Shown here: piece after piece, positions 8,150 through 48,314 of the stretch
How positions within the stretch are numbered: position 1 is the first letter of the stretch
How the letters are laid out: every line of letters begins with the position of its first letter
Source: Plasmodiophora brassicae
Taxonomy: Eukaryota
Direction: 5' to 3'
Assembly (NCBI GenBank): GCA_036867785.1
Contig: CP145417.1
Location: forward strand, 1,302,001 to 1,366,000
Length of the DNA stretch: 64,000 nucleotides
The notes under the pieces: generated by a model
Seen by the model: the letters and a program-made list of their open reading frames with translations, nothing else
The model's database searches: none
Told to the model about the DNA's origin: nothing
Made by a program: the position numbers and the translations under genes

Positions 8150-9775
8150 TCATACCGCATCAGAAGGCAGTGGAGTGCCGGTCTTGAAGTCAGGATCACG
8201 CGTACCGGTGCGATTCAGCAGCCACCTGTATTTGAACTTGAACTTTTTCGTGCGATACTGCACAAGGCCACACGGTTAGGCACAGCTGGGTATGCGCAGC
8301 AGATCATGCGGCACTAACCCAGAGGATTGCCAAGGAGATCAGCAGAGCGATGAGCAGCGCTCCGCAAACACCGAGCAGGACATACACGACTGTTCGGTCA
8401 AACTTTACTGGCAAAGCCGCGCGATTTGCCAAAGAATCAACGGAACGAATGGTGGTCGGCGGCGCCTTCGAACCTGTCGCCGACTGGATCACCTTCAAAG
8501 CCAATCCACCAGCGATGACGTTCGCCGCCGTCGACACGATTCCTATAGCGAATTACGTCACCATCATCAGTACGGGCTTGCTAATGAATTACGGGTTGCT
8601 GGACAGCAGACCTGGACGTCGCTGCGTAACCGAGAGAGGAACTACGGCAGGTTTGCCTGGCATGTTCTTGATCAGATAACTGGCCCCGAGTCCAAGTACG
8701 GCAGTTGCAGTAGAAGCTCTTGCAGCAGGACTCTTCAGCCAACCGGCCTAGGCGGAACAGAAATCACAAGGTAAGCACAGGCAGTTTCCAGCAGTCACGA
8801 CGGATTTGGACCTGGAGTTCACGTCTTGTTGCATTCAGCGCGGACCTGGTCTCGCACAGCTCTTGATAGCACCGTTTCAGATTTGCTGATGTCGTGTTCG
8901 CTAGCAGCGTTAAGTTCGCCAGTTCCAAATCGGCCGCTGCCGCGTAACGCTTGTGTTGCAGGCAAGCCGCTCGAGCATCTTGGAGCTCGCAGGATAGTGA
9001 TTGTATGGTAATGTCGTATTGCCTCTTCGTCTTCAGGCATATGTCGTTTTCTTCATCACGCTGCTGTTGCAGCCGGAGTATATCATCACGATACTTCTTC
9101 ATCGTCTTCTGATTTTCATCCCGAGTGGCCTCTAGACCTTTCATAACGGCACCGTTCTGTGCCAGCTGTTGACGCAGTCCTGCCTCAGCCGTCTGCAGTT
9201 TTTGCACGCGCGACTGCTCAAACTCAATAGTCCGTTGATGTTGTTGAGCGATGGAATGCCACGAATTCGCGTTCGTTCGAAGTTCGTCCATATCGGTGTT
9301 TGCCCGCGCCAGCCGGTCTGTGGCGTCCTCGAAGCGCTCTTTTATCTTGTTCACCTATGCCACGCTTCGTCAGCGGAATACGCCAGCATTGCGAAATTTG
9401 CCCTTCATACCACAAGCTTGGCAGACTCTCTAGACTCAGCCGCATTGTTTAACCTGTCCAACTCAATACGCATTGCCTGTGGACATGATCGTTAATTGTC
9501 CATTCCGGAAACATGGGTACAATACGGGTATTGGCGGCTACAATTACCTGATTCAGCTTAGTAGTGACCGTCGATATCACAAAATTGATATCGTATGAAG
9601 AAGCCTTTCCCAGAAGAAACCGATTCACTGCTATCACGCAGGGACTAAAGCCGTACCCGCATTCGGACAGCTCGATCTGTGGCGTGAAGCCGAAAGACCT
9701 ACTGAGCATCATTGATTTCACGGTAGCACTGAGACTCGCTGCCGCCATAATCGCAAGAACCGTCAACTTCGGCAT
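8150..9775 (-). CDS. Array family gene A (signal peptide, C-x6-C, long coiled coil, hydrophobic segments, TM)
   Basis: MPKLTVLAIMAAASLSATVKS...ECGYGFSPCVIAV; coiled-coil exon ~8810-9354; STAANVIAGGLALKVIQS; TM VVYVLLGVCGALLIALLISLAILW; last exon YRTKKFKFKY...DAV*. Confidence 0.75.
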
Positions 9776-10125
9776 TGTCTGATCTGACTAGAGACAACGA
9801 GAATGACGCGTCTGCCTCCCATCCGCATGCGGGATTCTGCAGGACTGCCGCAGCAGTTTGGGCCCATGTTTCTAAATCGGGACGGACCTACGCCACTAAT
9901 TCGTCGACAAATTCGGGAAGGTTTGGCAGTATCTGTTAACTGCGGTCCTCTCGAGGCGGGCTGCAGCAACCTGACGTCTACATGAACAAGACGCTCGTAT
10001 TGGCACGTCTGCAACGAACGGCGAGCGGGCCCGTCGTTCTGCCGCCTGACAATGAAACAGGCCTGACACGAAGATATAGCAGATGTGTATTGAAACCCCG
10101 TTAATGACAGAGCGCTCTACCCGGA

Positions 10126-16974: not shown

Positions 16975-17135
16975 GGCGCGTACGCGCGCTGTCATTGTTC
17001 CAGCGTGGCAAACGGCGGCGTCTGCCCGGGGAGACCATCGTTCAGGCGGCTGGTGTGTGCGGGGCCGACCCGCCGACTAATTAAACGTGTGTGCGCCTGC
17101 TTGTATTCGCATGCGTTCGGGTGCGGGCCCCGTGC

Positions 17136-17874: not shown

Positions 17875-19338
17875 TCACCAGTCCGGTGCGGGGATGATGT
17901 CCAAACGCTTCCTGCGGCACTGAACGGCGGTTAGATTGCGGCGCGCCCGCGCGTGCACCTCCTGGGGGCGCGCGAACCTTAAGGACGAACAGCGAGATCG
18001 CGAACGCCCCGGTCAACGTGACGCCGAACCCGGCGAGCAGGTATATGATCGTGGGTTCAGGTGACGGCGGGCTCGGCGGCGTTGTCACGTGCGACGACGC
18101 ATCGATCATCGGGCGGATGGGCGACAGCGACCGCAGCGCTCTCCGATCGACGGCCGACTGGAGGAACTTGACCGCCAACCCGGCAGCGATTGCACTGGAC
18201 ACCGATGCCGCAATCCCTGCGGGGGGAACCACAACGTCGTCAGCACCGGCATCGTCCAACAACGTACAGGTTTGCGAACCGGAGCGAACCGCGGAGCGCC
18301 CGACCGGTTGACGTTGCGCTGGGGTCCACTTGACGAGATGACCGGCGGCAATTAGTCCAAGACCGAACATGGACGAACCCCAGACAGGTCCGGCACCGGC
18401 TACCCCGCCGTCCTGCGACGCAGGGGTTAGCTTGCGTTGGGGTGTTGTGGACGTCAACCCGTACACGTACCTGTTGGCCAAGTCGTCGCTTTGCCTCTGT
18501 AAACTCGAGTTCCGTGTTTGCGAGTTCAGTTCTGGCGTTGTTCCAGAGTGACGTCACGTTCGCCACTTCTGCTGCCCGTTCCCGAGCGAGTTGTTCGAAC
18601 TTTACGGCCGATCGCATCATGGCATTCTTGCCCTTTGTACATATTTCCAGTTCCTTGCGCATCCTTGCATTGTTTTGTCGGCACGCCTTCAACAACACGA
18701 GAGTGTGTTCCACGTCATCACCCTTCTCTAATGCATCAATGAAGGCATCCTTATCTGCCAGTGCTTTCCTGTATGCCTCTTCATTCAACCTATTGCTCTC
18801 ATGTAGCGACTCCACCTCCGCTCGTAGCCGGCGCTGATCGCTGGAAACCGATTCGCTGCAGACCAGTTCGCCTACATCGTTCACGATACGATTTCGTATC
18901 AGATCCCGCTGCAGCATCTGTGAGCACAACCGGGCGTGGGTGACGTCCTGAACGGGCCTTACCAGAGGTTCGTTGGGGGCCGCGTATCGTCGATAGCTAC
19001 CTTTGCCATCGGGGATTGGCATCACAGCTTTTTCTACTGTACGTTCGATGCGGTGCAACTCGCCAGCGATCGACTGTGGGGTGCACACGCGTAAGATGGG
19101 CATATACAATAAGGAGCCAGACGATGATAACTACCTTCTTCAGCTGATCCAGTATGAATCCATGACGGCCTTCCGGCACCACGACCGTGGCAATGATGGC
19201 CGCGATCGTCGCCGTGCAATTATCGAGCGACTCAGCGCAAGCCTCCTCGATCGCCGATTCGTCGCTGCCTCCCCATGATTGTACAGCTGGCACAAGGAGC
19301 GCTGACACGATAACCCCAGCCGTTGCCATCGTCCACAT
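17875..19338 (-). CDS. Array family gene B
   Basis: MWTMATAGVIVSALLVPAVQSW...ACAESLDNCTATI...VVPEGRHGFILDQLKK; coiled coil; GIAASVSSAIAAGLAVKFLQS; TM IIYLLAGFGVTLTGAFAISLFVLK; tail CRRKRLDIIPAPDW*. Confidence 0.8.
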
Positions 19339-20001: not shown

Positions 20002-21317
20002 TCACCACATGATGTAATTGGAGTCCCTCGTCGATAACGCTCTTTTCAAACGTCGCTATACGAGACAGGGCCGCGAGTCAAGACACGAATAGTGTTTGGG
20101 ACCGGTTGCCAACCTTGAGGCGAGCCATCGAAACGACCAGGCCGGTAAGCAGGACGGCGAACGTGCCAGCGAGGACGTAAGCGATGATGCAGTTCGTCGA
20201 TGAACGAACGAGGGCAAAGTTCGGTGCATCGGCCGGACGACCCGACGACATTGATTGAGACGCCGCCAAGGCGGATGCCGATTGGAACGCCTTCAATGCC
20301 ACACCTCCAGCGATGGCACCCGATACGGACGACGCAATCCCTGGCGCGATCACAACGTCATCAGCACATGGAACTGTGCAACTAGGCTAAAGAAACAAAC
20401 CGAAGCCACGCTTGGGCTGAAGAACGGGAACGCCTTTAGCCGGCGTTATCGTGGGCTTGCTGACAAGAGCGATACCGTATCCAAGAGCGAATAGGGCAGC
20501 ACCAGCGACGAGTACTTGACCGCGCCACCGGATCTGCCAGTACGAACCAAACGATCAGACGACTTGCATATTGGACTTACCAGATCCCTATTGAACCGTG
20601 CCAGTTGCGTCAGGTTGCATGCCAATACTGCCACTGTGTTTCCCTCCATGACCAATGTTGGGGTGCTGGCCGTGCAAAGTTATCTGACCCAGCCGTTCTT
20701 TCAGCGTTGGTTTCCGTGAGGGTCGCGCAGGTGCCTAGAAGTACTTACACGATTCAGCTCTGCCGATTTGGCATCCAGTAACGCCTGCGTTGCATTGAGG
20801 CGATCCTCTAGATCCGCTTTGAAGACGGCGTCGACGCCTTTGCACGTCAGGTCGTCTGAAGCGTCCACCAAGCGCCGTCGTATGATGGCCAGCTGTATAC
20901 ATTTTCCTTCGTCAGCACGACGCTTTAATTTGGCGATATGGAAACCCATACCAGCTCTCTATTGCGACTGATTTTCGCAACAGGTAATTTCTTGATAGCT
21001 CCTTTGAAAATACATGTTCTCTCGCCATCGATTGCCTGTGAAGGTGGATTTGATCAGCAATGATCCGTAGCGGAGGCGCCACGATCCGGGAAGACACCAA
21101 CCCGCTTAAGCTCGCCCAATATGAATTCGTGCTGGCCTGTAGGTACCACTACAAGCTCAAGGATGTTGGCAATTGCGCTCATGCACCTATGGAGGGAAAC
21201 GTTGCATGACGTGGTGATAGCTGTCACGTGGGTGTCACTCCACGATATCGTTAATGATTTCGCGCTCGTAACCAGGAGCGCCGTCGCTATGAAGGTGACT
21301 GTCAGCAACTTGGTCAT
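20002..21317 (-). CDS. Array family gene C
   Basis: MTKLLTVTFIATALLVTSAKS...SCNVSLHRCMSAI...VVPTGQHEFILGELKR; GIASSVSGAIAGGVALKAFQS; TM IIAYVLAGTFAVLLTGLVVSM; tail RRLKRAL...W*. Confidence 0.75.
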
Positions 21318-22180: not shown

Positions 22181-23835
22181 TCAGTTCACCATCAGACGGC
22201 GCTGAACAGGGTGGCTTCATGTCAACAATATATTGGTAGCGAATCGTTTGAGAGCATCACCAACCTTGAAATAAACAAAAGTGAAGACCAGAACGACAGC
22301 CAGGGCGGAGCAAACGCCTGCCAAGGTGTAGATGACCACCGTGCGGCCAGGCGATGAAGACACGGGGGTCGCAGTTGGGGGACTGATCTGGCCAACTTTC
22401 GGGGACGGTTTCGAGGTCGTCTTGGAAGCTGTCGCCGACTGGACAACCTTCAATGCGACACCTCCAGCAATGGCAATCGACACAGCAGTCGTCGACACTG
22501 CCCCTGAGCGCATCATAGCATCAATACAGGATTGTCAGGAGAACATGGGCGCGACAAACCTGAGAAGAGCCTCGGCTGAGCAACAGGTGCAATTTCCCCC
22601 GCCTTGGGCTTGGCGAAATGACTGACAACGTGTCCGACCGCTGAGGCGGCCGTCCCTACCAGCAGACCAGCGCCGAGCATCTGAGAGGAACACGTCATCT
22701 CATTCATTGAGGATGTTGACGACTCCAGCAGATATCAATCTCACCTGTTTGCCACGCTTCTTCACCGCCGCCTGCGAACTGTTTCTCGTGTCGGCAAGCA
22801 ACGATTTCGTGCGTGCCAGTTCTCGTTGGCACATTTCAAGGCTGGAAGACGTCCGATTAACCACCAGCTGCATTTCCTTTACCTGTGCGCCCAACTTCAA
22901 TGCATTCCGCTCATGCAGTTGGATCTTGAGTAACGCCTGATCTTTCAATAGACGATCGTCTTCCTCGAACGACGACAGATCCGTTTGTTGGTTTACACAT
23001 GCGTTCGCCAATGACGGCTCTTGATGCAGCGCATTCAGCTCAGAGGTCAGGCAGGTCTGCGCCTCTTGTCCAGCTGTTAGTTCTGGAAGGCCAACCGCGG
23101 TCGCATTGACGTCTTCAGCGTCTTGGTTGCCACGAGCGGAAGTCGTAGCATTGTTCCCAGGAGGAGAATTCTGTTGACAGAGTATGTGACCGTTCAGAGC
23201 ATACTGGTAACAACGCTGATTAGGGCCCCGTAACTGACAGGAATGTTAGAAGAGCTGAATGCTTCCTTAAGGACGTCGACGACCTGCCCTTGTAAGACCT
23301 TCCGCTGTCGTCCCGGTTATTATCGTTCGCAGTGAGGAAAAATGTCTTACCAGATCCTCGTTATAGGCCACCCATTCACGAGCCCTTCGGCTTGACCACT
23401 CCCAATACAGCTGTCTGGTGGTCCACAATGTCTCCAGGGATTTCACAACCTGTAAGGAATTGCGATCAATGACAAGACTCCATCACGTTCATCCTCGACG
23501 CCGAACGTTTGTCAATTCGGTGAAGTCTCTCATCAACACTTGTGGGCCCACGTCGATGCTAGTCAGTGCCTGGAACGACACGTTAGTCAGCGAACGCTAC
23601 GACGCTGCAGCGGCATGGAGACCAATACCTTTTTCAGCTCATCCATGAAGAGCTGGTATTGGTCTTCAGGAACGATCGTCGATTTCATGGCGGACATGAT
23701 CGCGCTCATGCACTTCTCGAGGGACTTGGGACACTCCGTTTTGATCGTGTCCCCGTCGCTCTCAGCCCATGGTCTGGCGTTGGCTGAAAGGACGAGCGCA
23801 AACATTACGCAGCCAATCGTGGTCGTGCTCCACAT
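22181..23835 (-). CDS. Array family gene D
   Basis: MWSTTTIGCVMFALVLSANARPW...ECPKSLEKCMSAI; VNRTSSSLEMCQREL; LGAGLLVGTAASAVG; IAIAGGVALKVVQS; TM; short tail RRLMVN*. Confidence 0.78.
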
Positions 23836-24340: not shown

Positions 24341-25953
24341 TCAGGAATGGCCGCATCGCACACAGTCGGCATAGCTCATCAATATCTGCATCTCTTTCAG
24401 TCGGCGCTGGAAAGAACCCGACGTTAGCAAGACAATGTCAAGAGATATGTGGGAGCAGTTCGCCAACCTTGAAATGAGCGACAGAGACAACCAGGACGAT
24501 GAGAAGGGTGGCGCAGACGCCAGCCAGGATGCAAATGCCGATGGTACGGACGTCGATCGGCGAACAATCGGGCGTTGCATGTGGAGAACCGGTCCGGTGG
24601 GCAAACGAGCCAGACGGCTTCGACGCCTTCGTTACGGTCGCCGCCTGGAACGCCTTCATCGCGAAACCCCCAGCGACAGCACCCGATAATGCCGACACGA
24701 TCCCTGGAACAGCAGGTATATCAGGAAGCAAATGCACAATGGAATATAAGGCACAAACCGGCGCTTCGCTGTTGAGCAGCCTGTAGAACGGGAGCGTGCC
24801 CTCCTGTCGTGGGCTTGACGAGGCGACTGACGCCGTAAACAACAGTTGATGCGGTAGCCGCCCCTGTAGCCAGACCAACTCCCAGCATCTGTTTGTACAT
24901 GTGTGTCAGAGACGTCGAGCCATGCATCATAGACTGGCGGTCCACTCGACCTGTTTGCCATATTTGTTGAGAGCAGCGAGAGAGCTGATCTTAGCATTGT
25001 CAAGCGTCGTGGTAAGGTTAACGAGTTTTTGTTGGCACAACTCTAGTCTTGACGTGGTTCGATTCAATTCCAACCGCATTTGATCTGCCTCTGCGTCCAT
25101 CGCGCGACGATCATACAATTGGGCAATGCGCAATGTCTCACCTAAGTGGGACTCGCTCTCCTCAGAGGATGCCTCCACCAAATCGCGTCGAGCATTCCCA
25201 TTGCTCAAGTCAGCTCTCGCCACCTGGGACGTATCGCAATCCCTGTGAAGGCTATCCTCCTTCGTCGCCTTGCCTCCTGCTTGAGATTTCACTATTCTGT
25301 GCTCAGTGGTCCGTAGGATTTCTTGGCCGTCAACACCTGATTGCGAGTATGAACATCCTGGCGCCCTGTTCAACGCAGATCCTTACTGTGCCGCTGCTCA
25401 TTCGAAGTGTCGGGTTGGCGAGGTTTCCGTATCTTGGAATAACTGTCCGCTGAGTCCTGGCGGAATTCAACATACACCACGTCCGACAGATCGTCTGCAG
25501 TGACGTGCGCGAAACGCTGTTGTATGGCTTGCAGCTGGAGTGCTTCGTCAGCCTAATTACGTGGTGGCAGCACAAAACTCTACCGTACCAGAACTCGGTT
25601 GGAACGAACACCGGCTTCATCGTAGAATCGCATTGTAGCGATGGCACGCTCGAACTGGGCCATCTCGAGACTAAGCACCTGAGAAATCGACATTGTCAAT
25701 CCAATAACAGCCGAGACCACGAACATGCTGGTTTCCCTACAAGACTCAGCTGATCCAATATGAAATCGTACTTGTCCTCAGGTACGATTGCCATCTCAAG
25801 AATGGCCGCGATTACAGGAATGCACTGATCGAGCGACACCGCACAACCGGTCCTGATATTTGCCTCGTAGTCCGCTTTCCACGACGTCCCCGATTTGACG
25901 GTGATCAGCAGCACTGCCGGTATAATCGCAGCGATTACCAGCTTCGACGTCAT
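24341..25953 (-). CDS. Array family gene E
   Basis: MTSKLVIAAIIPAVLLITVKS...GCAVSLDQCIPVI; LNRTTSRLELCQQKL; LGVGLATGAATAS; GIVSALSGAVAGGFAMKAFQA; TM; tail RRLKEMQILMSYADCVRCGHS*. Confidence 0.78.
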
Positions 25954-27339: not shown

Positions 27340-28346
27340 TCAAATGCGATGAAACTGGATGCAGTTGGCACACCTCACTGATGTCACCTGCGAATTCTTC
27401 AAACGGCGCTGGACAGAGAGCACTGACGTCAGCGGCACGAGCCAGTACTCTACAGAGCAAACGGTGTTTGTTGACCTTGAAACGGAGGTGCGAGACAACC
27501 ATAACGATGATCAGGGTGGCACAGACGCCAGCCAAGACATAGGTGGCGACGGAACTGTCACGCGCTGGACGAACGAGCGCATCGGGTGGAGAACCCGCCT
27601 GATGCATTACAGCCGGCGACGACCTCGACGCCTTCAAGGCGGTGACCGACTGGAACGCCTTCAATGCACCACCGCCAGCGATGGCGGTCGATACGGTCGA
27701 CACGATTCCTGTGGGTGAACAGGAGAGCACTCAGTAGAGGACATCCAATTGATAAAACGTCTCTGGCGCAGACCCGAGCGGCGCCTCGGTTGACCAGAAA
27801 CGAACGCGCTCTTCCCCGTCATGGGCGCTGTGCGATAGCCCACACCGTATCCGATAACAGAAGCAGCCGCCGCTACAAGCAGACCAGCGCCCAGCATCTA
27901 TAAGATTGCATGCGTCTACTGTCAATAACATATTGGCTCAAGCACCCGGGCGGGAGTCTGGTTTCGACCTGGTTGCCACGCCTGCTGACAAAGGCCTGGG
28001 AGCCTTTGTCGGCACCGTCCAGCCGGGATTGCAAGCTGGTCAGGTCTCGCTGGCACGCCTGCAGGCTTGACGCGGTCCGGTTCATATCCAGCAGCAGTTG
28101 CTTGACCTGTTCGCCCAAGCCCAACGCGGGTTGCCCGAGCAGATGTGCCTTGCGCAGGTATCGGCCTTTAACAACCATTGTCTTCTTCATCCCGTCCACG
28201 ATCGCACCCGAGCATTTGCGCAGGGTCCTGGCGCACTCTGCAATGATCTTCCGTTCAACATTGCTCCCTGACCACCTATTGGCGTTCGCCGAAAGGACGA
28301 TTGCGGGTAGCAATAGGCAGACAGCCGCGGCAGACTTCCATGTCAT
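27340..28346 (-). CDS. Array family gene F (internally deleted, in frame)
   Basis: MTWKSAAAVCLLLPAIVLSANANRW...ECARTLRKCSGAI fused directly to coiled coil LGEQVKQLLLDMNRTASSLQACQRDL; tail RRLKNSQVTSVRCANCIQFHRI*. Confidence 0.78.
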
Positions 28347-31240: not shown

Positions 31241-33144
31241 TTAAACGTGGTGGCATTGGACGCAGTCGGCGTACTTCATTGATGCCAGCTGCAGATCCTT
31301 CAGACGGCGCTGCACAGAGGACGTTGTCAGCGACACGAGGCAGCACCACACAAAGCCGGCCGACCTTGAAACGAACGAGCGAGACGACCATAATGATGAT
31401 CAGGGTGACACAGACGCCGGCCAGGACGTACGCGACGATCGAGCTGTCACGTGCTGGACGAACGCGCGCATCGGGTGGAGAACCCACCGGGTGGGTTACA
31501 GCCGACGTCGACGATCTGGACGCCTTCACGGCCGCGACCGACTGGAACGCCTTCAATGCGACGCCCCCGGCGATGGCGGTCGATACGGTCGACACGATCC
31601 CTGGGTGGACACGGAAGTTCAATCAGTACACGACATCCGGTCGACAATTAACGTCGCCGGCGCTGACCGGATCGGCGCTCCGGTTGGCCAGAAACGGGCA
31701 CGTCTTTCCCGGGAATGGGAGCGGCGCGATACCCGACACCGTATCCGATCACTGAAGTGGCAGCCGCTGCCAGCAGACCAGCGCCCAGCACCTAAACAAC
31801 GCAGGCGTGATCTACTGTCAGTCATGTTGACGCGAGCACCCGGGCCGGACACGTCCGGTTCCGACCTGATTGCCACGCCTGCTGACAGCGGCCCGGGAGT
31901 CGTTGCTCGCACGGTCCAGCCGGGATTGCATGTCGGCCAGGTCTCGCTGGCACGCCTGCAGGCTTGCGTTGGTCCCGTGCATATCCAGCAGCAATCTCTT
32001 GACCTGCTCGTCCAAGTCCAGCGCGCGTTGCTCGTGCAGTTGGGCCTTGCGTATCGTCTCGTCCAAGAGACGTCCGTTATCGACGCCCCGGCTGGGCGCC
32101 TGTGCCACATCGCTGCCGCGAGCCGCGTTGTCCTTCGTCTGGCGATACTCCAGTTGGTCACCCTGGACTTGGGTGGCCAGCTGGCCGGTCGCTTCGGAAC
32201 CCGACACGAACGCGGTAAGCGGATCCGCCTGCTGGTTTGCCAACGAACGGGCCAATGTCGTCTCCCGATCGTGAACCGTTGTCAAACCCGGTTCAATCGG
32301 GTTTTCCGGCGCCCAGTGCTCGTCGGCATCCCACTCTTCACGAGCGTTGTGGAAACCCACGTCTATCTCGTCATCCTCCGATATACCGACGCGAGTCGCG
32401 TCCGCCTTTGTGGTATCCTTTACACCAACTCGGCTGGACGACGCGGGGCCGGCGTGCCTGACGTCGACAGGCTGGCGGCACAGAACACAACGGTTAGCAG
32501 ACAATCCGGGAACACCAACGGTGCTCGTTTCGTGTCTGACATTAGTGGTTGCTCCAGGGTTGAGAATCTCACCAACGGCGTTGACGATGTTCTCCTTGAG
32601 GTGTGTAAGCTGTACTGATCGGTCAGACCCGCGAACCTCCGGAACCAGAACAACGTACCAGCCCTTCGTTTTCGACAATTGATTTCCGTGAGGAGCGCCG
32701 GTTACGTAAGGCGGTCCACAACGGCTCCAGGAACTCTGCGACCTGCACCAGTCGACAATCAGGAGAAACGCTTCATTAGAGCCACCTGCTACGACGAACA
32801 TGTTTCAGCGTGTTGATGTCTTTGACGACGTCCTCTCGGTCCACGAATGCAGTGACGGCCTGCATAAACCATCGACGTCATTCAAACGTCGCGGATTGAC
32901 GGTCGCTTCAATGCCAGGGGGTGTCGCTCACCTGTTTCAACTGGTTCGTGATAAAACCGTACTGCTCTTCAGGAACCAGCGTGCTCTTCATTGCGGCCAC
33001 AATCGCGTCCGTGCATTCAAGGAGGGACTTGGCGCACTCGTAACGGATATCCTCATCGTCGTTCTCTGACCACGGATGGGCGTTCGCCGAAAGGCATAGC
33101 GCTGATAGCAATATGCAGACAGCCGCGGCCACCATCCACGACAT
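31241..33144 (-). CDS. Array family gene H1 (short exon-3 type)
   Basis: MSWMVAAAVCILLSALCLSANAHPW...ECAKSLLECTDAI; canonical GT-AG introns give an open frame to RFK|RRLKDLQLASMKYADCVQCHHV*. Confidence 0.85.
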
Positions 33145-33252: not shown

Positions 33253-33264
33253 TTCTAATTCGGG
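33253..33264 (-). promoter_or_regulatory. Conserved upstream motif CCCGAATTAGAA (representative copy)
   Basis: Same or variant motif ~65-115 bp upstream of the ATG of each family gene. Confidence 0.6.
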
Positions 33265-33324
33265 CATCACCGCGCTGCGGCCAGAAATGACTTACCTGAG
33301 CAGACTCTGCCGGACGGCTTTGCC

Positions 33325-34785
33325 ACAGACGTTGAGGTAACGTGGCGCAGATCGACGGCGAAGCGATCGCGGAATGTGGAGGTGCATCTCTTCGAAATCG
33401 GCAACGAACCTGTTGTCGTCGCCGTTGTCCGCCTTGTATGAGTGGTCGCACGGTTCGCCTAAGAAAGAACACCATTGCCTATGCCCATGTGGTAAGCCGA
33501 ACAGAACAGATAGAAACCATCCCAGAGATTATTGTACCGATTACGAGCCGTGGTCCGATTTGCATCTGACCCGAACTCGTGTATGACGTTGGAGCGCTGA
33601 CAGCACGGCCACGACTGGCCATCATGCTTGTAGGGGCGGCGATGCAACTAGCAACGTTCAGGTCAAAGACGACAAAGTTCCCAACAAGGAACAGGAGATG
33701 ATTCCAGCGACGAACTCGAGAGAATTTGCCTGTGGCAATACGTCGAGTTCATATGCGACTTCATCTCACGGGCAGGATATGAACCAGCGAATGAAACGGA
33801 TCGCATTGTCAAATGTTCTAGTCAAGCATGCGCGCGCGACTGACGTACAGATATCGTAACGCGCCGGCTCGGGATAACGTCAGGCAAAGCGTCTTCCAAG
33901 AACCGACGCGCGTCACGATCAAACGTTCGTGGCTCAAAGCTTTCGAAATTGTCTTGAACAGGTGGAGACGTAGTACTGGAAGACTGTGATCCAGAATACA
34001 GCGCGGGCAGAAGCGAAACCGCCATTAATGAAGCGGAACGCAATTGCGAACGAAGGCGCGACGGCGAGGTCACTGGTCCACACCATGGCACAATGGACCT
34101 TCCATTCGAGATGGGTACTCCGGCTTGTCAACGTTGCCGGACACCCATACAACCAGCGCCGAGTTCATTGCCTAACGCTGATTACCCCGAGCCCGTTTCA
34201 CATCCAGGGGCCGACCATAATAATTTCCATTAGGAGTCGTTATTGGCCGGCGCCCGAATTCCATTTCATCTGATTGAGGTATCAGAGGGAACCCACATTA
34301 CCAGTCTTGGAAACGAGTTACCTGGACACTTGCCTTCGAGGTCAAACGATTGTTATAGGGACGCCCTGGTGGTAGTGGCCTCGTAGGAAATCAGCACCAA
34401 ATGTCATCTGGATTGTCAGCGACTTTGATGGTTCCTGGGAGACGTCCAGATAAACCAGTACAAAGGACCCCAGCGAAGGGTCCTCTCGTGTAGGTGCACC
34501 AAGCATCTAATCAAATGATGAGCGTTAGAGAAAACGATTATGCTGCGGGCAGGACACACCGATAGTGTGAATAGGGATGGTGGCACGATTGACTCCAGAC
34601 GTGCCAGCGAATCGCGATCTTGCCAACAAGTAAATTCCACGCCTGTCTCTTGGAACGATTTCGCAAGCAACGTCGATTCCGCATGCAGAAATTCGAAGGC
34701 TGCCTTCCAGAAGACCACTGCGGGGGAGTTTGGACCAGATTTAAACACGGGAGACAATACAGAGCTAGACTGGTGAAACCGATGC
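33325..34785. other. Degenerate ~1.45-kb spacer element, repeated in every unit and truncated in the last
   Basis: Homologous to 5040-6090; absent from the otherwise alignable F-G intergenic region near 28510. Confidence 0.55.
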
Positions 34786-34996: not shown

Positions 34997-36983
34997 TTAA
35001 ACGTGGTGGCATTGGACGCAGTCGGCGTACTTCATTGATGCCAGCTGCAGATCCTTCAGACGGCGCTGCACAGACGACGTTGTCAGCGACACGAGGCAGC
35101 ACCACACAGAGCCGGTCGACCTTGAAACGAACGAGCGAGACGACCATAATGATGATCAGGGTGACACAGACGCCGGCCAGGACGTACGCGACGATCGAGC
35201 TGTCACGCGCTGGACGAACGCGCGCATCGGGTGGAGAACCCACCGGGTGGGTTACAGCCGACGTCGACGATCTGGACGCCTTCACGGCCGCGACCGACTG
35301 GAACGCCTTCAATGCGACGCCCCCGGCGATGGCGGTCGATACGGTCGACACGATCCCTGGGTGGACACGGATGTTCAATCAGTACACGACATCCGGTCGA
35401 CAATTAACGTCGCCGGCGCTGACCGGATCGGCGCTCCGGTTGGCCAGAAACGGGCACGTCTTTCCCGGGAATGGGAGCGGCGCGATACCCGACACCGTAT
35501 CCGATCACTGAAGTGGCAGCCGCTGCCAGCAGACCAGCGCCCAGCACCTAAACAAAGCAGGCGTGATCTACTGTCAGTCATGTTGACGCGAGCACCCGGG
35601 CCGGACACGTCCGGTTCCGACCTGATTGCCACGCCTGCTGACAGCGGCCCGGGAGTCGTTGCTCGCACGGTCCAGCCGGGATTGCATGTCGGCCAGGTCT
35701 CGCTGGCACGCCTGCAGGCTTGCGTTGGTCCCGTGCATATCCAGCAGCAATCTCTTGACCTGCTCGTCCAAGTCCAGCGCGCGTTGCTCGTGCAGTTGGG
35801 CCTTGCGTATCGTCTCGTCCAAGAGACGTCCGTTATCGACGCCCCGGCTGGGCGCCTGTGCCACATCGCTGCCGCGAGCCGCGTTGTCCTTCGTCTGGCG
35901 ATACTCCAGTTGGTCACCCTGGACTTGGGTGGCCAGCTGGCCGGTCGCTTCGGAACCCGACACGAACGCGGTAAGCGGATCCGCCTGCTGGTTTGCCAAC
36001 GAACGGGCCAATGTCGTCTCCCGATCGTGAACCGTTGTCAAACCCGGTTCAATCGGGTTTTCCGGCGCCCAGTGCTCGTCGGCATCCCACTCTTCACGAG
36101 CGTTGTGGAAACCCACGTCTATCTCGTCATCCTCCGATATACCGACGCGAGTCGCGTCCGCCTTTGTGGTATCCTTTACACCAACTCGGCTGGACGACGC
36201 GGGGCCGGCGTGCCTGACGTCGACAGGCTGGCGGCACAGAACACAACGGTTAGCAGACAATCCGGGAACACCAACGGTGCTCGTTTCGTGTCTGACATTA
36301 GTGGTTGCTCCAGGGTTGAGAATCTCACCAACGGCGTTGACGATGTTCTCCTTGAGGTGCGTAAGCTGTCCTGATCGGTCAGACCCGCGAACCTCCAGAA
36401 CCAGAACAACGTACCAGGCCTTCGTTTGTGTCCATTGGATTCGGTCCACATATAGATGCGACGGGCCGGAACAGCTCGAAAGGTAAGAGGGACTGGGCCA
36501 GGGTGAAATACGAGTCTGTCCAGGCGTTCCGGATCGGATCGGAAGATGAGGCGGTCCACAACGGCTCCAGGCACTCTGCGACCTGCACCAGTCGACAATC
36601 AGGAGAAACGCTTCACTAGAGCCACCTGCTACGACGAACATGTTTCAGCGTGTTGATGTCTTTGACGACTTCCTTTCGGTCCACGAATGAGGTGACGGCC
36701 TGCATAAACCATCGGCGTCATTCAAACGTCGCGGATTGACGCTCGCTTCAATGCCAGGGGCGCCGATCACCTGCTTCAACTGGTTCGTGATGAAACCGTA
36801 CTGCTCTTCAGGAACCAGCTTGGTCTTCATTGCGGCCACAATCGCGTCCGTGCATTCAAGGAGGGACTTGGCGCACTCGTAACGGATATCCTCATCGTCG
36901 TTCTCTGACCACGGATGGGCGTTCGCCGAAAGGCATAGCGCTGATAGCAATATGCAGACAGCCGCGGCCACCATCCACGACAT
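34997..36983 (-). CDS. Array family gene H2 (long exon-3 type)
   Basis: As H1 but exon 3 is VAECLEPLWTASSSDPIRNAWTDSYFTLAQSLLPFELFRPVASICGPNPMDTNEGL (+28 aa). Confidence 0.85.
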
Positions 36984-38812: not shown

Positions 38813-40719
38813 TTAAACGTGGTGGCATTGGACGCAGTCGGCGTACTTCATTGATGCCAGCTGCAGATCCTTCAGACGGCGCTGCACAGACGACGTTGTC
38901 AGCGACACGAGGCAGCACCACACAGAGCCGGTCGACCTTGAAACGAACGAGCGAGACGACCATAATGATGATCAGGGTGACACAGACGCCGGCCAGGACG
39001 TACGCGACGATCGAGCTGTCACGCGCTGGACGAACGCGCGCATCGGGTGGAGAACCCACCGGGTGGGTTACAGCCGACGTCGACGATCTGGACGCCTTCA
39101 CGGCCGCGACCGACTGGAACGCCTTCAATGCGACGCCCCCGGCGATGGCGGTCGATACGGTCGACACGATCCCTGGGTGGACACGGATGTTCAATCAGTA
39201 CACGACATCCGGTCGACAATTAACGTCGCCGGCGCTGACCGGATCGGCGCTCCGGTTGGCCAGAAACGGGCACGTCTTTCCCGGGAATGGGAGCGGCGCG
39301 ATACCCGACACCGTATCCGATCACTGAAGTGGCAGCCGCTGCCAGCAGACCAGCGCCCAGCACCTAAACAACGCAGGCGTGATCTACTGTCAGTCATGTT
39401 GACGCGAGCACCCGGGCCGGACACGTCCGGTTCCGACCTGATTGCCACGCGTGCTGACAGCGGCCCGGGAGTCGTTGCTCGCACGGTCCAGCCGGGATTG
39501 CATGTCGGCCAGGTCTCGCTGGCACGCCTGCAGGCTTGCGTTGGTCCCGTGCATATCCAGCAGCAATCTCTTGACCTGCTCGTCCAAGTCCAGCGCGCGT
39601 TGCTCGTGCAGTTGGGCCTTGCGTATCGTCTCGTCCAAGAGACGTCCGTTATCGACGCCCCGGCTGGGCGCCTGTGCCACATCGCTGCCGCGAGCCGCGT
39701 TGTCCTTCGTCTGGCGATACTCCAGTTGGTCACCCTGGACTTGGGTGGCCAGCTGGCCGGTCGTTTCGGAACCCGACACGAACGCGGTAAGCGGATCCGC
39801 CTGCTGGTTTGCCAACGAACGGGCCAATGTCGTCTCCCGATCGTGAACCGTTGTCAAACCCGGTTCGATCGGGTTTTCCGGCGCCCTGTGCTCGTCGGCA
39901 TCCCACTCTTCACGAGCGTCGTCGAACAGCTCGTCCATCTCGTCCTCCTCCGATATACCGACTTCGAGAGCCGCGTCCGCCTTTGTGGTATCCTTTACAC
40001 CAACTCGGCTGGACGACACCGGGACCGCGTGCCTGACGTCGACAGGCTGGAGGCACAGGACACAACGGTTAGCAGGCAATCCGGGAACACTAACAGTGCT
40101 CGTTTCGTGACTGACATTAGTGGTTGCTCCAGGGTTGAGAATCTCACCAACGGCGTTGACGATGTTCTCCTTGAGGTGTGTAAGCTGTACTGATCGGTCA
40201 GACCCGCGAACCTCCGGAACCAGAACAACGTACCAGCCCTTCGTTTTCGACAATTGATTTCCGTGAGGAGCGCCGGTTACGTAAGGCGGTCCACAACGGC
40301 TCCAGGAACTCTGCGACCTGCACCAGTCGACAATCAGGAGAAACGCTTCATTAGAGCCACCTGCTACGACGAACATGTTTCAGCGTGTTGATGTCTTTGA
40401 CGACGTCCTCTCGGTCCACGAATGCAGTGACGGCCTGCATAAACCATCGACGTCATTCAAACGTCGCGGATTGACGGTCGCTTCAATGCCAGGGGGTGTC
40501 GCTCACCTGTTTCAACTGGTTCGTGATAAAACCGTACTGCTCTTCAGGAACCAGCGTGCTCTTCATTGCGGCCACAATCGCGTCCGTGCATTCAAGGAGG
40601 GACTTGGCGCACTCGTAACGGATATCCTCATCGTCGTTCTCTGACCACGGATGGGCGTTCGCCGAAAGGCATAGCGCTGATAGCAATATGCAGACAGCCG
40701 CGGCCACCATCCACGACAT
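38813..40719 (-). CDS. Array family gene H3 (short exon 3, divergent linker patch)
   Basis: As H1 but ADAALEVGISEEDEMDELFDDAREE replaces ADATRVGISEDDEIDVGFHNAREE. Confidence 0.85.
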
Positions 40720-42571: not shown

Positions 42572-44475
42572 TTAAACGTGGTGGCATTGGACGCAGTCGG
42601 CGTACTTCATTGATGCCAGCTGCAGATCCTTCAGACGGCGCTGCACAGACGACGTTGTCAGCGACACGAGGCAGCACCACACAGAGCCGGTCGACCTTGA
42701 AACGAACGAGCGAGACGACCATAATGATGATCAGGGTGACACAGACGCCGGCCAGGACGTACGCGACGATCGAGCTGTCACGCGCTGGACGAACGCGCGC
42801 ATCGGGTGGAGAACCCACCGGGTGGGTTACAGCCGACGTCGACGATCTGGACGCCTTCACGGCCGCGACCGACTGGAACGCCTTCAATGCGACGCCCCCG
42901 GCGATGGCGGTCGATACGGTCGACACGATCCCTGGGTGGACACGGATGTTCAATCAGTACACGACATCCGGTCGACAATTAACGTCGCCGGCGCTGACCG
43001 GATCGGCGCTCCGGTTGGCCAGAAACGGGCACGTCTTTCCCGGGAATGGGAGCGGCGCGATACCCGACACCGTATCCGATCACTGAAGTGGCAGCCGCTG
43101 CCAGCAGACCAGCGCCCAGCACCTAAACAAAGCAGGCGTGATCTACTGTCAGTCATGTTGACGCGAGCACCCGGGCCGGACACGTCCGGTTCCGACCTGA
43201 TTGCCACGCCTGCTGACAGCGGCCCGGGAGTCGTTGCTCGCACGGTCCAGCCGGGATTGCATGTCGGCCAGGTCTCGCTGGCACGCCTGCAGGCTTGCGT
43301 TGGTCCCGTGCATATCCAGCAGCAATCTCTTGACCTGCTCGTCCAAGTCCAGCGCGCGTTGCTCGTGCAGTTGGGCCTTGCGTATCGTCTCGTCCAAGAG
43401 ACGTCCGTTATCGACGCCCCGGCTGGGCGCCTGTGCCACATCGCTGCCGCGAGCCGCGTTGTCCTTCGTCTGGCGATACTCCAGTTGGTCACCCTGGACT
43501 TGGGTGGCCAGCTGGCCGGTCGCTTCGGAACCCGACACGAACGCGGTAAGCGGATCCGCCTGCTGGTTTGCCAACGAACGGGCCAATGTCGTCTCCCGAT
43601 CGTGAACCGTTGTCAAACCCGGTTCAATCGGGTTTTCCGGCGCCCAGTGCTCGTCGGCATCCCACTCTTCACGAGCGTTGTGGAAACCCACGTCTATCTC
43701 GTCATCCTCCGATATACCGACGCGAGTCGCGTCCGCCTTTGTGGTATCCTTTACACCAACTCGGCTGGACGACGCGGGGCCGGCGTGCCTGACGTCGACA
43801 GGCTGGCGGCACAGAACACAACGGTTAGCAGACAATCCGGGAACACCAACGGTGCTCGTTTCGTGTCTGACATTAGTGGTTGCTCCAGGGTTGAGAATCT
43901 CACCAACGGCGTTGACGATGTTCTCCTTGAGGTGTGTAAGCTGTACTGATCGGTCAGACCCGCGAACCTCCGGAACCAGAACAACGTACCAGCCCTTCGT
44001 TTTCGACAATTGATTTCCGTGAGGAGCGCCGGTTACGTAAGGCGGTCCACAACGGCTCCAGGAACTCTGCGACCTGCACCAGTCGACAATCAGGAGAAAC
44101 GCTTCATTAGAGCCACCTGCTACGACGAACATGTTTCAGCGTGTTGATGTCTTTGACGACGTCCTCTCGGTCCACGAATGCAGTGACGGCCTGCATAAAC
44201 CATCGACGTCATTCAAACGTCGCGGATTGACGGTCGCTTCAATGCCAGGGGGTGTCGCTCACCTGTTTCAACTGGTTCGTGATAAAACCGTACTGCTCTT
44301 CAGGAACCAGCGTGCTCTTCATTGCGGCCACAATCGCGTCCGTGCATTCAAGGAGGGACTTGGCGCACTCGTAACGGATATCCTCATCGTCGTTCTCTGA
44401 CCACGGATGGGCGTTCGCCGAAAGGCATAGCGCTGATAGCAATATGCAGACAGCCGCGGCCACCATCCACGACAT
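42572..44475 (-). CDS. Array family gene H4 (short exon-3 type)
   Basis: ORF translations match H1. Confidence 0.85.
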
Positions 44476-46327
44476 CGCTGGCGGAAACGTTCTCAGGACG
44501 ACCGGGCCTCGTTCGCGTGTGGAGCTCAGTCGCACGCCCTCAGGGGCCGTCAGGCAGCATCAGGCTATATCAGGAGCGCATAATTCTAATTCGGGCATCA
44601 CCGCGCTGCGGCCAGAAATGACTTACCTGAGCAGACTCTGCCGGACGGCTTTGCCACAGACGTTGAGGTAACGTGGCGCAGATCGACGGCGAAGCGATCG
44701 CGGAATGTGGAGGTGCATCTCTTCGAAATCGGCAACGAACCTGTTGTCGTCGCCGTTGTCCGCCTTGTATGAGTGGTCGCACGGTTCGCCTAAGAAAGAA
44801 CACCATTGCCTATGCCCATGTGGTAAGCCGAACAGAACAGATAGAAACCATCCCAGAGATTATTGTACCGATTACGAGCCGTGGTCCGATTTGCATCTGA
44901 CCCGAACTCGTGTATGACGTTGGAGCGCTGACAGCACGGCCACGACTGGCCATCATGCTTGTAGGGGCGGCGATGCAACTAGCAACGTTCAGGTCAAAGA
45001 CGACAAAGTTCCCAACAAGGAACAGGAGATGATTCCAGCGACGAACTCGAGAGAATTTGCCTGTGGCAATACGTCGAGTTCATATGCGACTTCATCTCAC
45101 GGGCAGGATATGAACCAGCGAATGAAACGGATCGCATTGTCAAATGTTCTAGTCAAGCATGCGCGCGCGACTGACGTACAGATATCGTAACGCGCCGGCT
45201 CGGGATAACGTCAGGCAAAGCGTCTTCCAAGAACCGACGCGCGTCACGATCAAACGTTCGTGGCTCAAAGCTTTCGAAATTGTCTTGAACAGGTGGAGAC
45301 GTAGTACTGGAAGACTGTGATCCAGAATACAGCGCGGGCAGAAGCGAAACCGCCATTAATGAAGCGGAACGCAATTGCGAACGAAGGCGCGACGGCGAGG
45401 TCACTGGTCCACACCATGGCACAATGGACCTTCCATTCGAGATGGGTACTCCGGCTTGTCAACGTTGCCGGACACCCATACAACCAGCGCCGAGTTCATT
45501 GCCTAACGCTGATTACCCCGAGCCCGTTTCACATCCAGGGGCCGACCATAATAATTTCCATTAGGAGTCGTTATTGGCCGGCGCCCGAATTCCATTTCAT
45601 CTGATTGAGGTATCAGAGGGAACCCACATTACCAGTCTTGGAAACGAGTTACCTGGACACTTGCCTTCGAGGTCAAACGATTGTTATAGGGACGCCCTGG
45701 TGGTAGTGGCCTCGTAGGAAATCAGCACCAAATGTCATCTGGATTGTCAGCGACTTTGATGGTTCCTGGGAGACGTCCAGATAAACCAGTACAAAGGACC
45801 CCAGCGAAGGGTCCTCTCGTGTAGGTGCACCAAGCATCTAATCAAATGATGAGCGTTAGAGAAAACGATTATGCTGCGGGCAGGACACACCGATAGTGTG
45901 AATAGGGATGGTGGCACGATTGACTCCAGACGTGCCAGCGAATCGCGATCTTGCCAACAAGTAAATTCCACGCCTGTCTCTTGGAACGATTTCGCAAGCA
46001 ACGTCGATTCCGCATGCAGAAATTCGAAGGCTGCCTTCCAGAAGACCACTGCGGGGGAGTTTGGACCAGATTTAAACACGGGAGACAATACAGAGCTAGA
46101 CTGGTGAAACCGATGCCTTTCACCATGGCCAAACCAAGGGGCCGGTTTTCGGCTTGACCGCCATCATCAGCCGCGCGCAATTCTAATTCTGGCATCACCC
46201 CTCGCCTCGGCGGGTGGCCTGCTGCCGGCAGGATAAGCAACGCCAATCGACAGTATTCATTCGGATAGTTTGAAACGAAACACGCACTGGCCAGCTGACA
46301 TGGACGTCTGCGCTGCCATGCATAGCC

Positions 46328-48314
46328 TTAAACGTGGTGGCATTGGACGCAGTCGGCGTACTTCATTGATGCCAGCTGCAGATCCTTCAGACGGCGCTGC
46401 ACAGACGACGTTGTCAGCGACACGAGGCAGCACCACACAGAGCCGGTCGACCTTGAAACGAACGAGCGAGACGACCATAATGATGATCAGGGTGACACAG
46501 ACGCCGGCCAGGACGTACGCGACGATCGAGCTGTCACGCGCTGGACGAACGCGCGCATCGGGTGGAGAACCCACCGGGTGGGTTACAGCCGACGTCGACG
46601 ATCTGGACGCCTTCACGGCCGCGACCGACTGGAACGCCTTCAATGCGACGCCCCCGGCGATGGCGGTCGATACGGTCGACACGATCCCTGGGTGGACACG
46701 GATGTTCAATCAGTACACGACATCCGGTCGACAATTAACGTCGCCGGCGCTGACCGGATCGGCGCTCCGGTTGGCCAGAAACGGGCACGTCTTTCCCGGG
46801 AATGGGAGCGGCGCGATACCCGACACCGTATCCGATCACTGAAGTGGCAGCCGCTGCCAGCAGACCAGCGCCCAGCACCTAAACAAAGCAGGCGTGATCT
46901 ACTGTCAGTCATGTTGACGCGAGCACCCGGGCCGGACACGTCCGGTTCCGACCTGATTGCCACGCCTGCTGACAGCGGCCCGGGAGTCGTTGCTCGCACG
47001 GTCCAGCCGGGATTGCATGTCGGCCAGGTCTCGCTGGCACGCCTGCAGGCTTGCGTTGGTCCCGTGCATATCCAGCAGCAATCTCTTGACCTGCTCGTCC
47101 AAGTCCAGCGCGCGTTGCTCGTGCAGTTGGGCCTTGCGTATCGTCTCGTCCAAGAGACGTCCGTTATCGACGCCCCGGCTGGGCGCCTGTGCCACATCGC
47201 TGCCGCGAGCCGCGTTGTCCTTCGTCTGGCGATACTCCAGTTGGTCACCCTGGACTTGGGTGGCCAGCTGGCCGGTCGCTTCGGAACCCGACACGAACGC
47301 GGTAAGCGGATCCGCCTGCTGGTTTGCCAACGAACGGGCCAATGTCGTCTCCCGATCGTGAACCGTTGTCAAACCCGGTTCAATCGGGTTTTCCGGCGCC
47401 CAGTGCTCGTCGGCATCCCACTCTTCACGAGCGTTGTGGAAACCCACGTCTATCTCGTCATCCTCCGATATACCGACGCGAGTCGCGTCCGCCTTTGTGG
47501 TATCCTTTACACCAACTCGGCTGGACGACGCGGGGCCGGCGTGCCTGACGTCGACAGGCTGGCGGCACAGAACACAACGGTTAGCAGACAATCCGGGAAC
47601 ACCAACGGTGCTCGTTTCGTGTCTGACATTAGTGGTTGCTCCAGGGTTGAGAATCTCACCAACGGCGTTGACGATGTTCTCCTTGAGGTGCGTAAGCTGT
47701 CCTGATCGGTCAGACCCGCGAACCTCCAGAACCAGAACAACGTACCAGGCCTTCGTTTGTGTCCATTGGATTCGGTCCACATATAGATGCGACGGGCCGG
47801 AACAGCTCGAAAGGTAAGAGGGACTGGGCCAGGGTGAAATACGAGTCTGTCCAGGCGTTCCGGATCGGATCGGAAGATGAGGCGGTCCACAACGGCTCCA
47901 GGCACTCTGCGACCTGCACCAGTCGACAATCAGGAGAAACGCTTCACTAGAGCCACCTGCTACGACGAACATGTTTCAGCGTGTTGATGTCTTTGACGAC
48001 TTCCTTTCGGTCCACGAATGAGGTGACGGCCTGCATAAACCATCGGCGTCATTCAAACGTCGCGGATTGACGCTCGCTTCAATGCCAGGGGCGCCGATCA
48101 CCTGCTTCAACTGGTTCGTGATGAAACCGTACTGCTCTTCAGGAACCAGCTTGGTCTTCATTGCGGCCACAATCGCGTCCGTGCATTCAAGGAGGGACTT
48201 GGCGCACTCGTAACGGATATCCTCATCGTCGTTCTCTGACCACGGATGGGCGTTCGCCGAAAGGCATAGCGCTGATAGCAATATGCAGACAGCCGCGGCC
48301 ACCATCCACGACAT
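46328..48314 (-). CDS. Array family gene H5 (long exon-3 type)
   Basis: ORF translations match H2. Confidence 0.85.

Follow-up and report, generated by a model that had tools for sequence, protein, structure and literature searches.

Twelve tandem genes of Plasmodiophora brassicae encode a family of predicted secretory membrane proteins with no relative detected outside the species

Introduction

What does a run of related genes on one strand of the genome of Plasmodiophora brassicae encode, and could its products stand at the surface where this parasite meets its host? Clubroot is a major disease of Brassica crops, and to our knowledge the proteins of the plasmodial membrane, with which host organelles come into contact, are almost wholly uncharacterised. 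We addressed the question for a stretch of 64,000 nucleotides (the window; GenBank assembly GCA_036867785.1, contig CP145417.1, positions 1,302,001 to 1,366,000 of the forward strand), in which 12 intact paralogues of one family (A–G and H1–H5) lie on the minus strand between window positions 8150 and 48314. An earlier reading of the letters without database searches (the sequence-only reading) had proposed an unassigned, diversifying family of surface or secreted proteins. The account that we favour, tentatively, is an orphan P. brassicae family of secretory-pathway membrane glycoproteins displayed on the host-contacting surface of the parasite.

Twelve intact paralogues on one strand

A tblastn search with the peptide of H1 exon 1 matched 11 N-terminal domains (N-domains; E 3e-5 to 7e-46), starting at 19335, 21287, 23832, 25881, 28346, 30980, 33144, 36983, 40719, 44475 and 48314. 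The twelfth copy, A (9775-8150), lay outside this set and was recognised by its reading frames; between them the two approaches bore out the 12 same-strand paralogues that had been claimed for 8150-48314. In the six-frame translation the strict word AIAGG occurred 9 times, every time on the minus strand and within the array, and the long plus-strand frames in the array are the antisense of family genes. Pairwise protein identity ran from 22% (A-B) up to 100% (H1 = H4, H2 = H5), a span that matches the divergence first described, from barely alignable to identical. Counts of shared features were taken over the 10 distinct proteins that remain when the two identical pairs are collapsed.

All 12 gene models are open, and every intron is bounded by GT..AG and measures 46–105 nucleotides (nt), sizes that agree with the 60-bp introns reported for P. 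brassicae in the 2015 genome paper (PMC4471660). A protein-to-DNA spliced aligner written for this analysis reproduced the RNA-based H1 model exactly; the other copies were modelled with this aligner and with splice sites read by eye. Both introns named by the sequence-only reading, one after the N-domain exon and one before the tail exon, are real, conserved and in phase 0, but the genes have 3–7 introns in all (4–8 exons). The additional introns include one before each of the LG.GL and AIAGG segments, and the N-domain exon can be separated from the variable exon by as many as three small exons. The first of the two named introns is absent from F, whose exon 1 runs from the N-domain straight into the coiled coil: an in-frame internal deletion has joined the two, and with the intron F has lost the VP....FI..QL motif.

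The members are as follows; public proteins given as equal agree letter for letter, and X1, X3 and X5 are public runs described further below.

Gene A, 8150..9775, minus strand: 433 amino acids (aa), 6 exons; the most divergent member, with a long coiled coil, introns of 59–71 nt and an intact open reading frame (ORF)
Gene B, 17875..19338, minus strand: 389 aa, 6 exons; equals P0017
Gene C, 20002..21317, minus strand: 306 aa, 7 exons; variable region nearly nil, intact ORF, introns of 47–105 nt
Gene D, 22181..23835, minus strand: 413 aa, 8 exons; 6/7 introns are RNA joints in X1, X3 or X5
Gene E, 24341..25953, minus strand: 422 aa, 7 exons, intact ORF; 428 aa with an alternative acceptor of intron 2
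Gene F, 27340..28346, minus strand: 267 aa, 4 exons; equals P0013
Gene G, 28872..30980, minus strand: 553 aa; 575 aa with intron 5 (29404-29469, 66 nt, in frame) kept
Gene H1, 31241..33144, minus strand: 486 aa, 8 exons; 7/7 introns are joints in X1, X3 and X5; equals P0010
Gene H2, 34997..36983, minus strand: 514 aa, exon 3 longer by 84 nt; equals P0011
Gene H3, 38813..40719, minus strand: 487 aa
Gene H4, 42572..44475, minus strand: 486 aa, protein identical to H1
Gene H5, 46328..48314, minus strand: 514 aa, protein identical to H2

Among the other members, G is represented in public sets by P0008 (575 aa) and P0009 (571 aa), and the D orthologue of another strain is P0012 (395 aa); C was not found as a public protein in the word-indexed and profile searches. 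A public model of A from another strain (P0030, 439 aa) matches from exon 2 on and places its first exon ~0.9 kb upstream, without the family-type signal peptide and C-x6-C pair (window region 9548-10700). The first intron of P0030 would be very long for P. brassicae, so that this model may join two genes.

Architecture of the predicted proteins

The N-terminal 19-mer has a mean Kyte-Doolittle value of 1.3–2.2 in 10/10 distinct proteins. The shared signal peptide that had been proposed is accordingly represented by a signal-like N-terminus throughout, as a call made on hydrophobicity and on the small residues ahead of the putative cut only (SANA before H, N or R). A C-x6-C pair is present in the N-domain of 10/10, as had been described; the remainder of the proposed N-domain motif is less general, W and VP being missing from A and VP....FI..QL from F. 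AlphaFold modelled the H1 N-domain as four helices with a predicted local distance difference test score (pLDDT) of 55–69. A variable stretch of 0–213 aa follows, with a net charge of -9 to -24 in D, G and H, and leads into a heptad helix (residues 274-359 of H1) modelled at pLDDT about 90. Its core a/d residues in H1 are A, L, V, L, M, T, L, C, L, M, L, A. In 8/10 proteins the coiled coil has a Cys, at a core d position. In 9/10 it has a cluster of N-glycosylation sequons, with a sequon at a place common to all nine; the coiled-coil sequons ascribed to the whole family were missing only in the remaining protein.

After the coiled coil comes a mostly dibasic motif (RR, KR or KK, 4–6 residues before the end of exon 5), and then hydrophobic segment 1, which is Gly/Ala-rich (Kyte-Doolittle up to 2.15) and is followed by a short P.K..PV loop. 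Hydrophobic segment 2 reads I.S..S.AIAGG.A.K..QS, with A, G, A, K and Q invariant in 8/8 paralogues of the exon-7 alignment. A Ser/Pro-rich linker separates it from a C-terminal transmembrane (TM) helix with Kyte-Doolittle values of 2.0–3.0, and the basic tail begins with K-RRLK and ends with C-x2-C in E, G and H. The AIAGG segment and the TM helix were thus found as claimed and, together with the signal-like N-terminus, they sustain the description of a family with secretory and membrane features. In the H1 model, residues 360-436 formed no long helix (pLDDT below 50).

The dibasic motif admits another reading, in which the ectodomain would be cut there, just before hydrophobic segment 1, and released as a soluble effector while the C-terminal part stays behind. 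Such a motif does recur in most paralogues (SRRGNQ, KKRGKQ, AKRRLGQQ, ATRRELQ), and the stretch aligns weakly to a viral polybasic cleavage site with its fusion peptide. However, no furin-type R-x-K/R-R sequence stands beside the hydrophobic segment: the basic residues are dibasic only and lie 4–6 residues upstream, E has only NKYGKQ without a dibasic pair, and H3 has STRGNQ. On balance we consider release by cleavage improbable.

Transcription and splicing

Contigs of four public runs (X1, X3, X5 and X15) were placed on 15000-34800, a stretch that ends short of A. In X1, X3 and X5, which come from three studies, contig gaps are bounded by GT..AG on the minus strand; the contigs of X15, which is DNA-like, are unbroken. 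The 15 joints listed out of 51 belong to H1 (7), D (6) and a neighbouring gene (2), and all 15 have CT..AC ends on the plus strand and depth 0 in X15. The H1 protein built from the RNA joints, 486 aa long, equals P0010. The array is therefore not silent: family transcripts were spliced in three runs, at 7/7 introns of H1 and 6/7 of D. Several members gave contigs within one run, with no sign of one-at-a-time expression.

RNA support differed from gene to gene. A piece of an X1 contig (18470-18908) agrees with two exon borders of B; over C the RNA consists of a low-depth X1 contig at the 5' end only, and its splice sites are without RNA support. The stop-free intron 5 of G was kept in X1, X3 and X5 contigs that run unbroken over 29291-30309, and the homologous intron of H1 was removed in the same three runs; intron 5 of G may be an intron that is becoming coding sequence. 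In X1 the summed contig depth was high over D and zero over E, and in X3 and X5 D was low and E present. This hints at different use of paralogues between samples, although the depths cannot rank genes.

Contigs of X3 and X5 over E break at 24931/24936 into letters that are absent from the window; this could mean inefficient splicing of E, or a structural difference in the sampled strains. Two loose contig ends (30992 and 33224) were considered as signs of upstream exons or of a spliced leader and were set aside, since the letters beyond them are not in the window and no AG precedes them.

Growth and divergence of the array

The tree of the family is nested along the chromosome, with A first, then B/C/E, then D, then (F,G) and H; support for the F/G/H clade was 99/98. 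The array grew by serial tandem duplication. Its five H units, each 3.76 kb long and of types a, b, a', a, b in order, are mosaics: kilobases of identical sequence alternate with short divergent patches. Through the gene, H2 and H5 show zero differences. H1 and H4 differ in 15 columns, all within the first 750 at the 3' end, which is the array edge (10, 3 and 2 per 250-column bin). H2 and H4 differ in 167 columns, confined to exons 2-4 and the upstream flank, and the differences between H2 and H1 are likewise restricted to exons 2-3 and the upstream flank. Between H3 and H4 there are 28 differing columns, 27 of them in an acidic variable patch of ~500 bp (about 32079-32576 in H1 coordinates). 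The youngest copies have undergone recombination or gene conversion among themselves.

Strains differ as well. Amino-acid differences between strains range from 2/267 (F) to 24/514 (H2), plus indels of 18 and 24 aa, and they cluster in exon 3 and the acidic patch. The PBRA_/SPQ record set of another strain (contigs of 130,636 and 1,287,707 bases) yielded one H1-type and one H2-type protein against the five H genes found here, so that the H copy number may vary by strain or that assembly may have collapsed the repeat. One X15 contig continues from the region upstream of H1 into the neighbouring unit, and the tandem arrangement is therefore not peculiar to the present assembly. With respect to the birth-and-death pattern suggested earlier, birth is documented by the nested tree, the mosaic H units and the deletion in F; death is not, as there is no pseudogene in the window.

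We asked whether the term diversifying could be taken to mean positive selection. The ratio of non-synonymous to synonymous change (dN/dS; Nei-Gojobori, pairwise) was 0.46–0.57 overall among F, G, H and D pairs. In F/G/H pairs it was 1.09–1.23 in the coiled coil and 0.22–0.31 in the hydrophobic part and linker, and the patch that distinguishes H1 from H3 gave 1.05 (14.5 non-synonymous against 4.5 synonymous changes). Only the coiled coil and this patch reach about 1, and the term did not stand in that sense. The C-terminal hydrophobic part is the most constrained and the ectodomain evolves fast; judged by these ratios, change in the family is fast and partly unconstrained, with recombination, and does not demonstrate positive selection.

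A ratio of 0.46–0.57 is high for coding genes and might be taken as a sign that the array is largely non-functional, a set of recent duplicates and decaying copies transcribed to no purpose. Member lengths from 267 to 553 aa, the absence of C from public protein sets and the unspliced E contigs that are listed would suit such a view. Against it, 12/12 frames are open through 3–7 introns, the hydrophobic part is held at the low ratio given above, motifs are invariant between members of only 22–35% identity, and transcripts are spliced in three studies. We therefore regard a non-functional array as very unlikely.

Relatives of the family

No Pfam family reached its cut-off in hmmscan searches with P0010, P0011 and P0009, and all sub-threshold rows fell on the TM region. 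Two word-indexed protein searches returned P. brassicae proteins only (5 and 10 rows). A profile of the family, used in a search of the kind that the sequence-only reading had proposed, gave 13 matches at E<=0.001 among 1.84 billion representative proteins. Of these, twelve correspond to family members A, B, D, E, F, G and H, as versions or as fragments of their ORFs, or to an F-like variant. The remaining match is marginal (E 7.6e-4), to a repeat protein of 875 aa, and was taken as chance. As a control for coverage, the word-indexed collection was searched with a neighbouring PTEN-like ORF; this gave 1341 proteins from a wide range of eukaryotes at E<=1e-20 and did not return that gene's own P. 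brassicae protein. The description of the family as unassigned is thus borne out, and no known housekeeping family claims it.

Structure-based searches were consistent with these results. The ESM Atlas held no usable match to the family, and the one match to H1 in a PDB sequence search (E 2.4) was taken as chance. The H1 model had 0 Foldseek matches at E<=0.001, and VIA-align against 48,161 chains gave generic coiled coils only (Z<=7) among the matches listed. The suggested combination of AlphaFold and Foldseek therefore succeeded in part: it yielded the coiled-coil helix at high confidence, but the models as a whole were poor and the fold search gave no significant match.

That the family had not been described before also held in the literature, in so far as its locus tags (PBRA_008365 and PBRA_008369-008372; SPQ98484, 98487, 98489 and 98492-98494) are named in no main text searched, supplementary tables being outside that search. 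The published surface-associated effector PbALE is encoded by another gene (PBRA_005440).

By these sequence comparisons, the family appears to be an orphan specific to P. brassicae, with no relative detected outside the species in the libraries searched. Apart from P0023, the protein searches found no member outside the locus. P0023, a 96-aa F-like ORF from another public assembly, is short of one coiled-coil heptad (LQACQRD) and with it of the conserved Cys, and so points to a further divergent allele or copy elsewhere.

A candidate family at the parasite surface

The three parts of the favoured account differ in strength. Very probably the locus encodes a real family of secretory membrane proteins; that they sit in the plasma membrane and face the host is possible, and we hold it tentatively; a specific role in contact or recognition is more doubtful. 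In the mechanism that we propose, a cleaved signal peptide would send the N-terminus into the lumen of the endoplasmic reticulum (ER). The ectodomain would consist of a helical head with the C-x6-C pair, a variable acidic linker and an N-glycosylated heptad coiled-coil stalk, and given the conserved Cys at a core d position the coiled coil is probably a parallel, disulfide-stabilised oligomer. The strong C-terminal helix would act as the anchor and place the basic, often CxxC-bearing tail in the parasite cytosol, and the two Gly/Ala-rich segments could be extra membrane spans or membrane-embedded helices beside it. According to a report on infected cells (PMC13738674), secondary plasmodia lie inside plant cells and engulf host organelles and ER-derived host membranes that collect at their surface. 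With this topology, the ectodomain of a plasma-membrane protein would therefore be in reach of host material. Most likely, such a protein would serve in contact, adhesion or recognition at the parasite surface, its paralogues and copy number being variable.

The same sequence features also fit recognition or fusion between parasite cells. The proteins could serve the life cycle of the parasite, in the recognition or fusion of zoospores or plasmodia or in building sporangia and resting spores, and recognition between cells, or of a mating-type-like kind, would then drive the fast change. The features suit any surface protein, and the combination of a heptad helix, a basic motif and a Gly/Ala peptide weakly matches a viral class I fusion peptide (E 0.009-0.1). 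A fusion of secondary zoospores in the life cycle is suggested in the genome paper (PMC4471660), and the strong difference between D and E contig depths could reflect stage, in depths that cannot rank genes. The fusion-protein match is insignificant, however, and no heptad repeat follows the hydrophobic peptide. A life-cycle role thus seems rather unlikely as the main explanation.

Several points weigh against a host-facing surface family. The signal peptide and topology were called by simple hydrophobicity and not by a trained predictor. Both fold models are poor (mean pLDDT 56.9 for H1 and 43.0 for the short member F), and positive charges flank both sides of the weaker hydrophobic segments of H1, which makes the number of membrane spans ambiguous. 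The run type RNA is a software guess, no listed run being recorded as RNA, so that intron removal alone shows transcripts. The listed X3 and X5 contigs of E are unspliced across 24931-25999, and the 5' half of the E model is therefore without RNA support. Since overall dN/dS is below 1, fast change may reflect relaxed constraint and not host-driven selection. The presence of Spongospora and Polymyxa proteomes in the libraries is unconfirmed, and 'species-specific' may mean 'not found'.

With these points allowed for, what the window contains appears to be a new family of a familiar kind, a tandem lineage-specific array of membrane proteins, for which a role at the host interface is plausible. 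A species-restricted, expressed and fast-changing membrane family with apparent strain differences supplies candidates for the plasmodial interface. The secretome of the 2015 genome study was defined as proteins with a signal peptide and without a TM helix (PMC4471660), and a screen of that kind would have filtered this family out. Should the family instead serve recognition between parasite cells, it would give access to a poorly understood part of the life cycle.

Upstream motif, spacer element and neighbouring genes

The flanks of the genes carry a short motif, and the H spacers a longer repeated element:

CGAATTAGAA, 33253..33262, minus strand: motif upstream of H1
CGAATTAGAA, 9870, 21433, 26019, 28434, 31092, 37092, 40828, 44584 and 48423, minus strand: other sites
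CGAATTAGAA, 34850, 38666, 42425 and 46181, minus strand: further sites
33441..34153, no strand assigned: element repeated in all spacers between H genes; a diverged copy in inverted orientation lies at 5087-6127

With at most one mismatch, CGAATTAGAA had 14 matches, all on the minus strand and in the array; shuffled sequences averaged 1.65 and 0/100 reached 14. It stands 66–116 nt ahead of the start codon in A, C, E, F, G and H1-H5, and neither B nor D has it upstream at <=1 mismatch. A and H are far apart in the family and both keep the motif, which suggests a shared promoter element.

The spacer element aligns with its copy at 5087-6127 in three pieces of 67–75% identity (blastn). Summed X15 contig depth was 1200 in the bin 32847-33507 against about 80 elsewhere (~15x), so that part of the element may belong to a repeat with many copies. 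A copy of the element seems to be transcribed, to judge from RNA contigs that have loose ends at 33775 and 34104.

The G+C content ranges over 53–69% in the window; the array (8000-49000) has 53–60%, against 62–69% in the flanking ordinary genes. The A-B interval of ~8 kb contains unrelated genes, among them a plus-strand protein-kinase ORF and a spliced minus-strand transcript. Features other than the family are:

12.5-13.9 kb, plus strand: protein kinase ORF
50.3 kb: TPR gene
52.6-54.6 kb: PH plus PTEN-like phosphatase
57 kb: C2H2 finger gene
57726-58340, minus strand: SRF-type (MADS-box) ORF
60.3 kb: Ulp1 protease
62344-62853, plus strand: SRF-type (MADS-box) ORF
62930-63655, minus strand: SRF-type (MADS-box) ORF

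The three MADS-box ORFs (E 1e-10 to 7e-17) share a stretch of 6 kb and may form a small cluster of candidate MADS-box genes.

Comparison with known systems

In one public source H1 bears the name 't-SNARE coiled-coil homology domain-containing protein', and we compared the family with Qa-SNAREs. Like syntaxins, the proteins have a helical N-domain, a linker, a heptad motif of ~53-60 residues, a short basic linker and a hydrophobic helix; the register is unbroken over ~60 residues and is followed by VSRRGNQ and then VLGAGLLAAAATSVIGYGV (Kyte-Doolittle 1.74). The other three of four SNARE hallmarks are absent, and on these the public label fails. No SNARE or Syntaxin profile matched at E<=10, in a range where the HMMER filters drop most matches above about 0.1. 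At the polar core layer most paralogues have T and gene G has N; neither Q nor R occurs there. By a heuristic count the proteins are not tail-anchored, with an N-terminal hydrophobic segment in 10/10 and the in-coil sequon in 9/10; they differ from syntaxins in this signal-like N-terminus, in the sequon and in ~120 extra C-terminal residues with two hydrophobic segments.

Two explanations build on the syntaxin-like layout. The first, that these are ordinary endogenous syntaxins of the parasite, draws on the public name and on a coiled coil followed by a hydrophobic helix, and on nothing else; the signal-like N-terminus, the conserved sequon in the coil, the Pfam null result, the two further hydrophobic segments after the first and the lack of homologues in other eukaryotes, where SNAREs are universal, make it scarcely credible, and we consider it refuted. 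The second is mimicry. An inside-out syntaxin-like protein with a heptad motif of about 16 layers, placed by its type I topology on the host-cytosolic face of the plasmodial membrane and provided with a fusion-peptide-like Gly/Ala segment, would capture, tether or fuse host vesicles and organelles and feed their uptake, its paralogues matching different host partners. Bacterial SNARE mimics offer a precedent, chlamydial IncA reportedly being one. The heptad core is continuous; its conserved polar layer (T/N) stands 36 residues ahead of the hydrophobic helix, the basic linker lying in between, and AlphaFold continues the helix into the hydrophobic segment. Host endomembranes do gather at plasmodia (PMC13738674). 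On the other side, the core is without a Q/R zero layer and the SNARE and Syntaxin profiles stayed silent. The top Foldseek row for the H1 model, a SNARE-complex chain, reached only E 1.5 at probability 0.08, and in the VIA-align comparison, where coiled coils were generic at Z<=7, a SNARE chain came only at rank 34 among the 50 tied rows listed. We judge mimicry quite improbable.

Among solved structures, the best profile match was pneumovirus F, at the F2 end, cleavage site and fusion peptide, and it is insignificant: 31 of the 57 distinct sequences listed were pneumovirus F, at E 0.0086-0.43 over profile positions 90-171, and single stretches gave E 0.03-0.12. The order of elements is alike, a sequon-bearing helix, a basic motif and a Gly/Ala-rich hydrophobic peptide. 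Unlike class I fusion proteins, the family has neither a furin-type site nor a later heptad repeat, and its members are cellular genes with introns; neither Foldseek nor VIA-align matched a class I fusion glycoprotein fold. Until shown otherwise, we take this likeness as convergence in composition.

In tetherin (BST-2) the extracellular coiled coil is glycosylated and its chains are linked through Cys residues, and the H1 helix 274-360 aligns with its ectodomain at Z 6.9 with a root-mean-square deviation of 3.2 over 87 residues; all 50 VIA-align rows listed were tied at Z 6.6-7.0 and were generic single helices, which makes the alignment uninformative on family or function.

The sequence-only reading had drawn an analogy with the RIFINs, and of this the layout stood but not the details. 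The genes have 4–8 exons and not the two of RIFIN and STEVOR genes, and no RIFIN family was among their Pfam matches. Unlike RIFIN and STEVOR proteins, they carry a heptad coiled coil and two Gly/Ala-rich hydrophobic segments. They comprise 8 distinct types at one locus, against hundreds of RIFIN and STEVOR genes, and we know of no export motif in P. brassicae. In layout the two groups are alike: a signal sequence, a semi-conserved Cys-bearing N-terminal part, a variable stretch, a TM helix and a short, conserved basic tail. They are alike also in their genes, which are clustered paralogues of one lineage, near-identical to barely alignable, that differ as mosaics.

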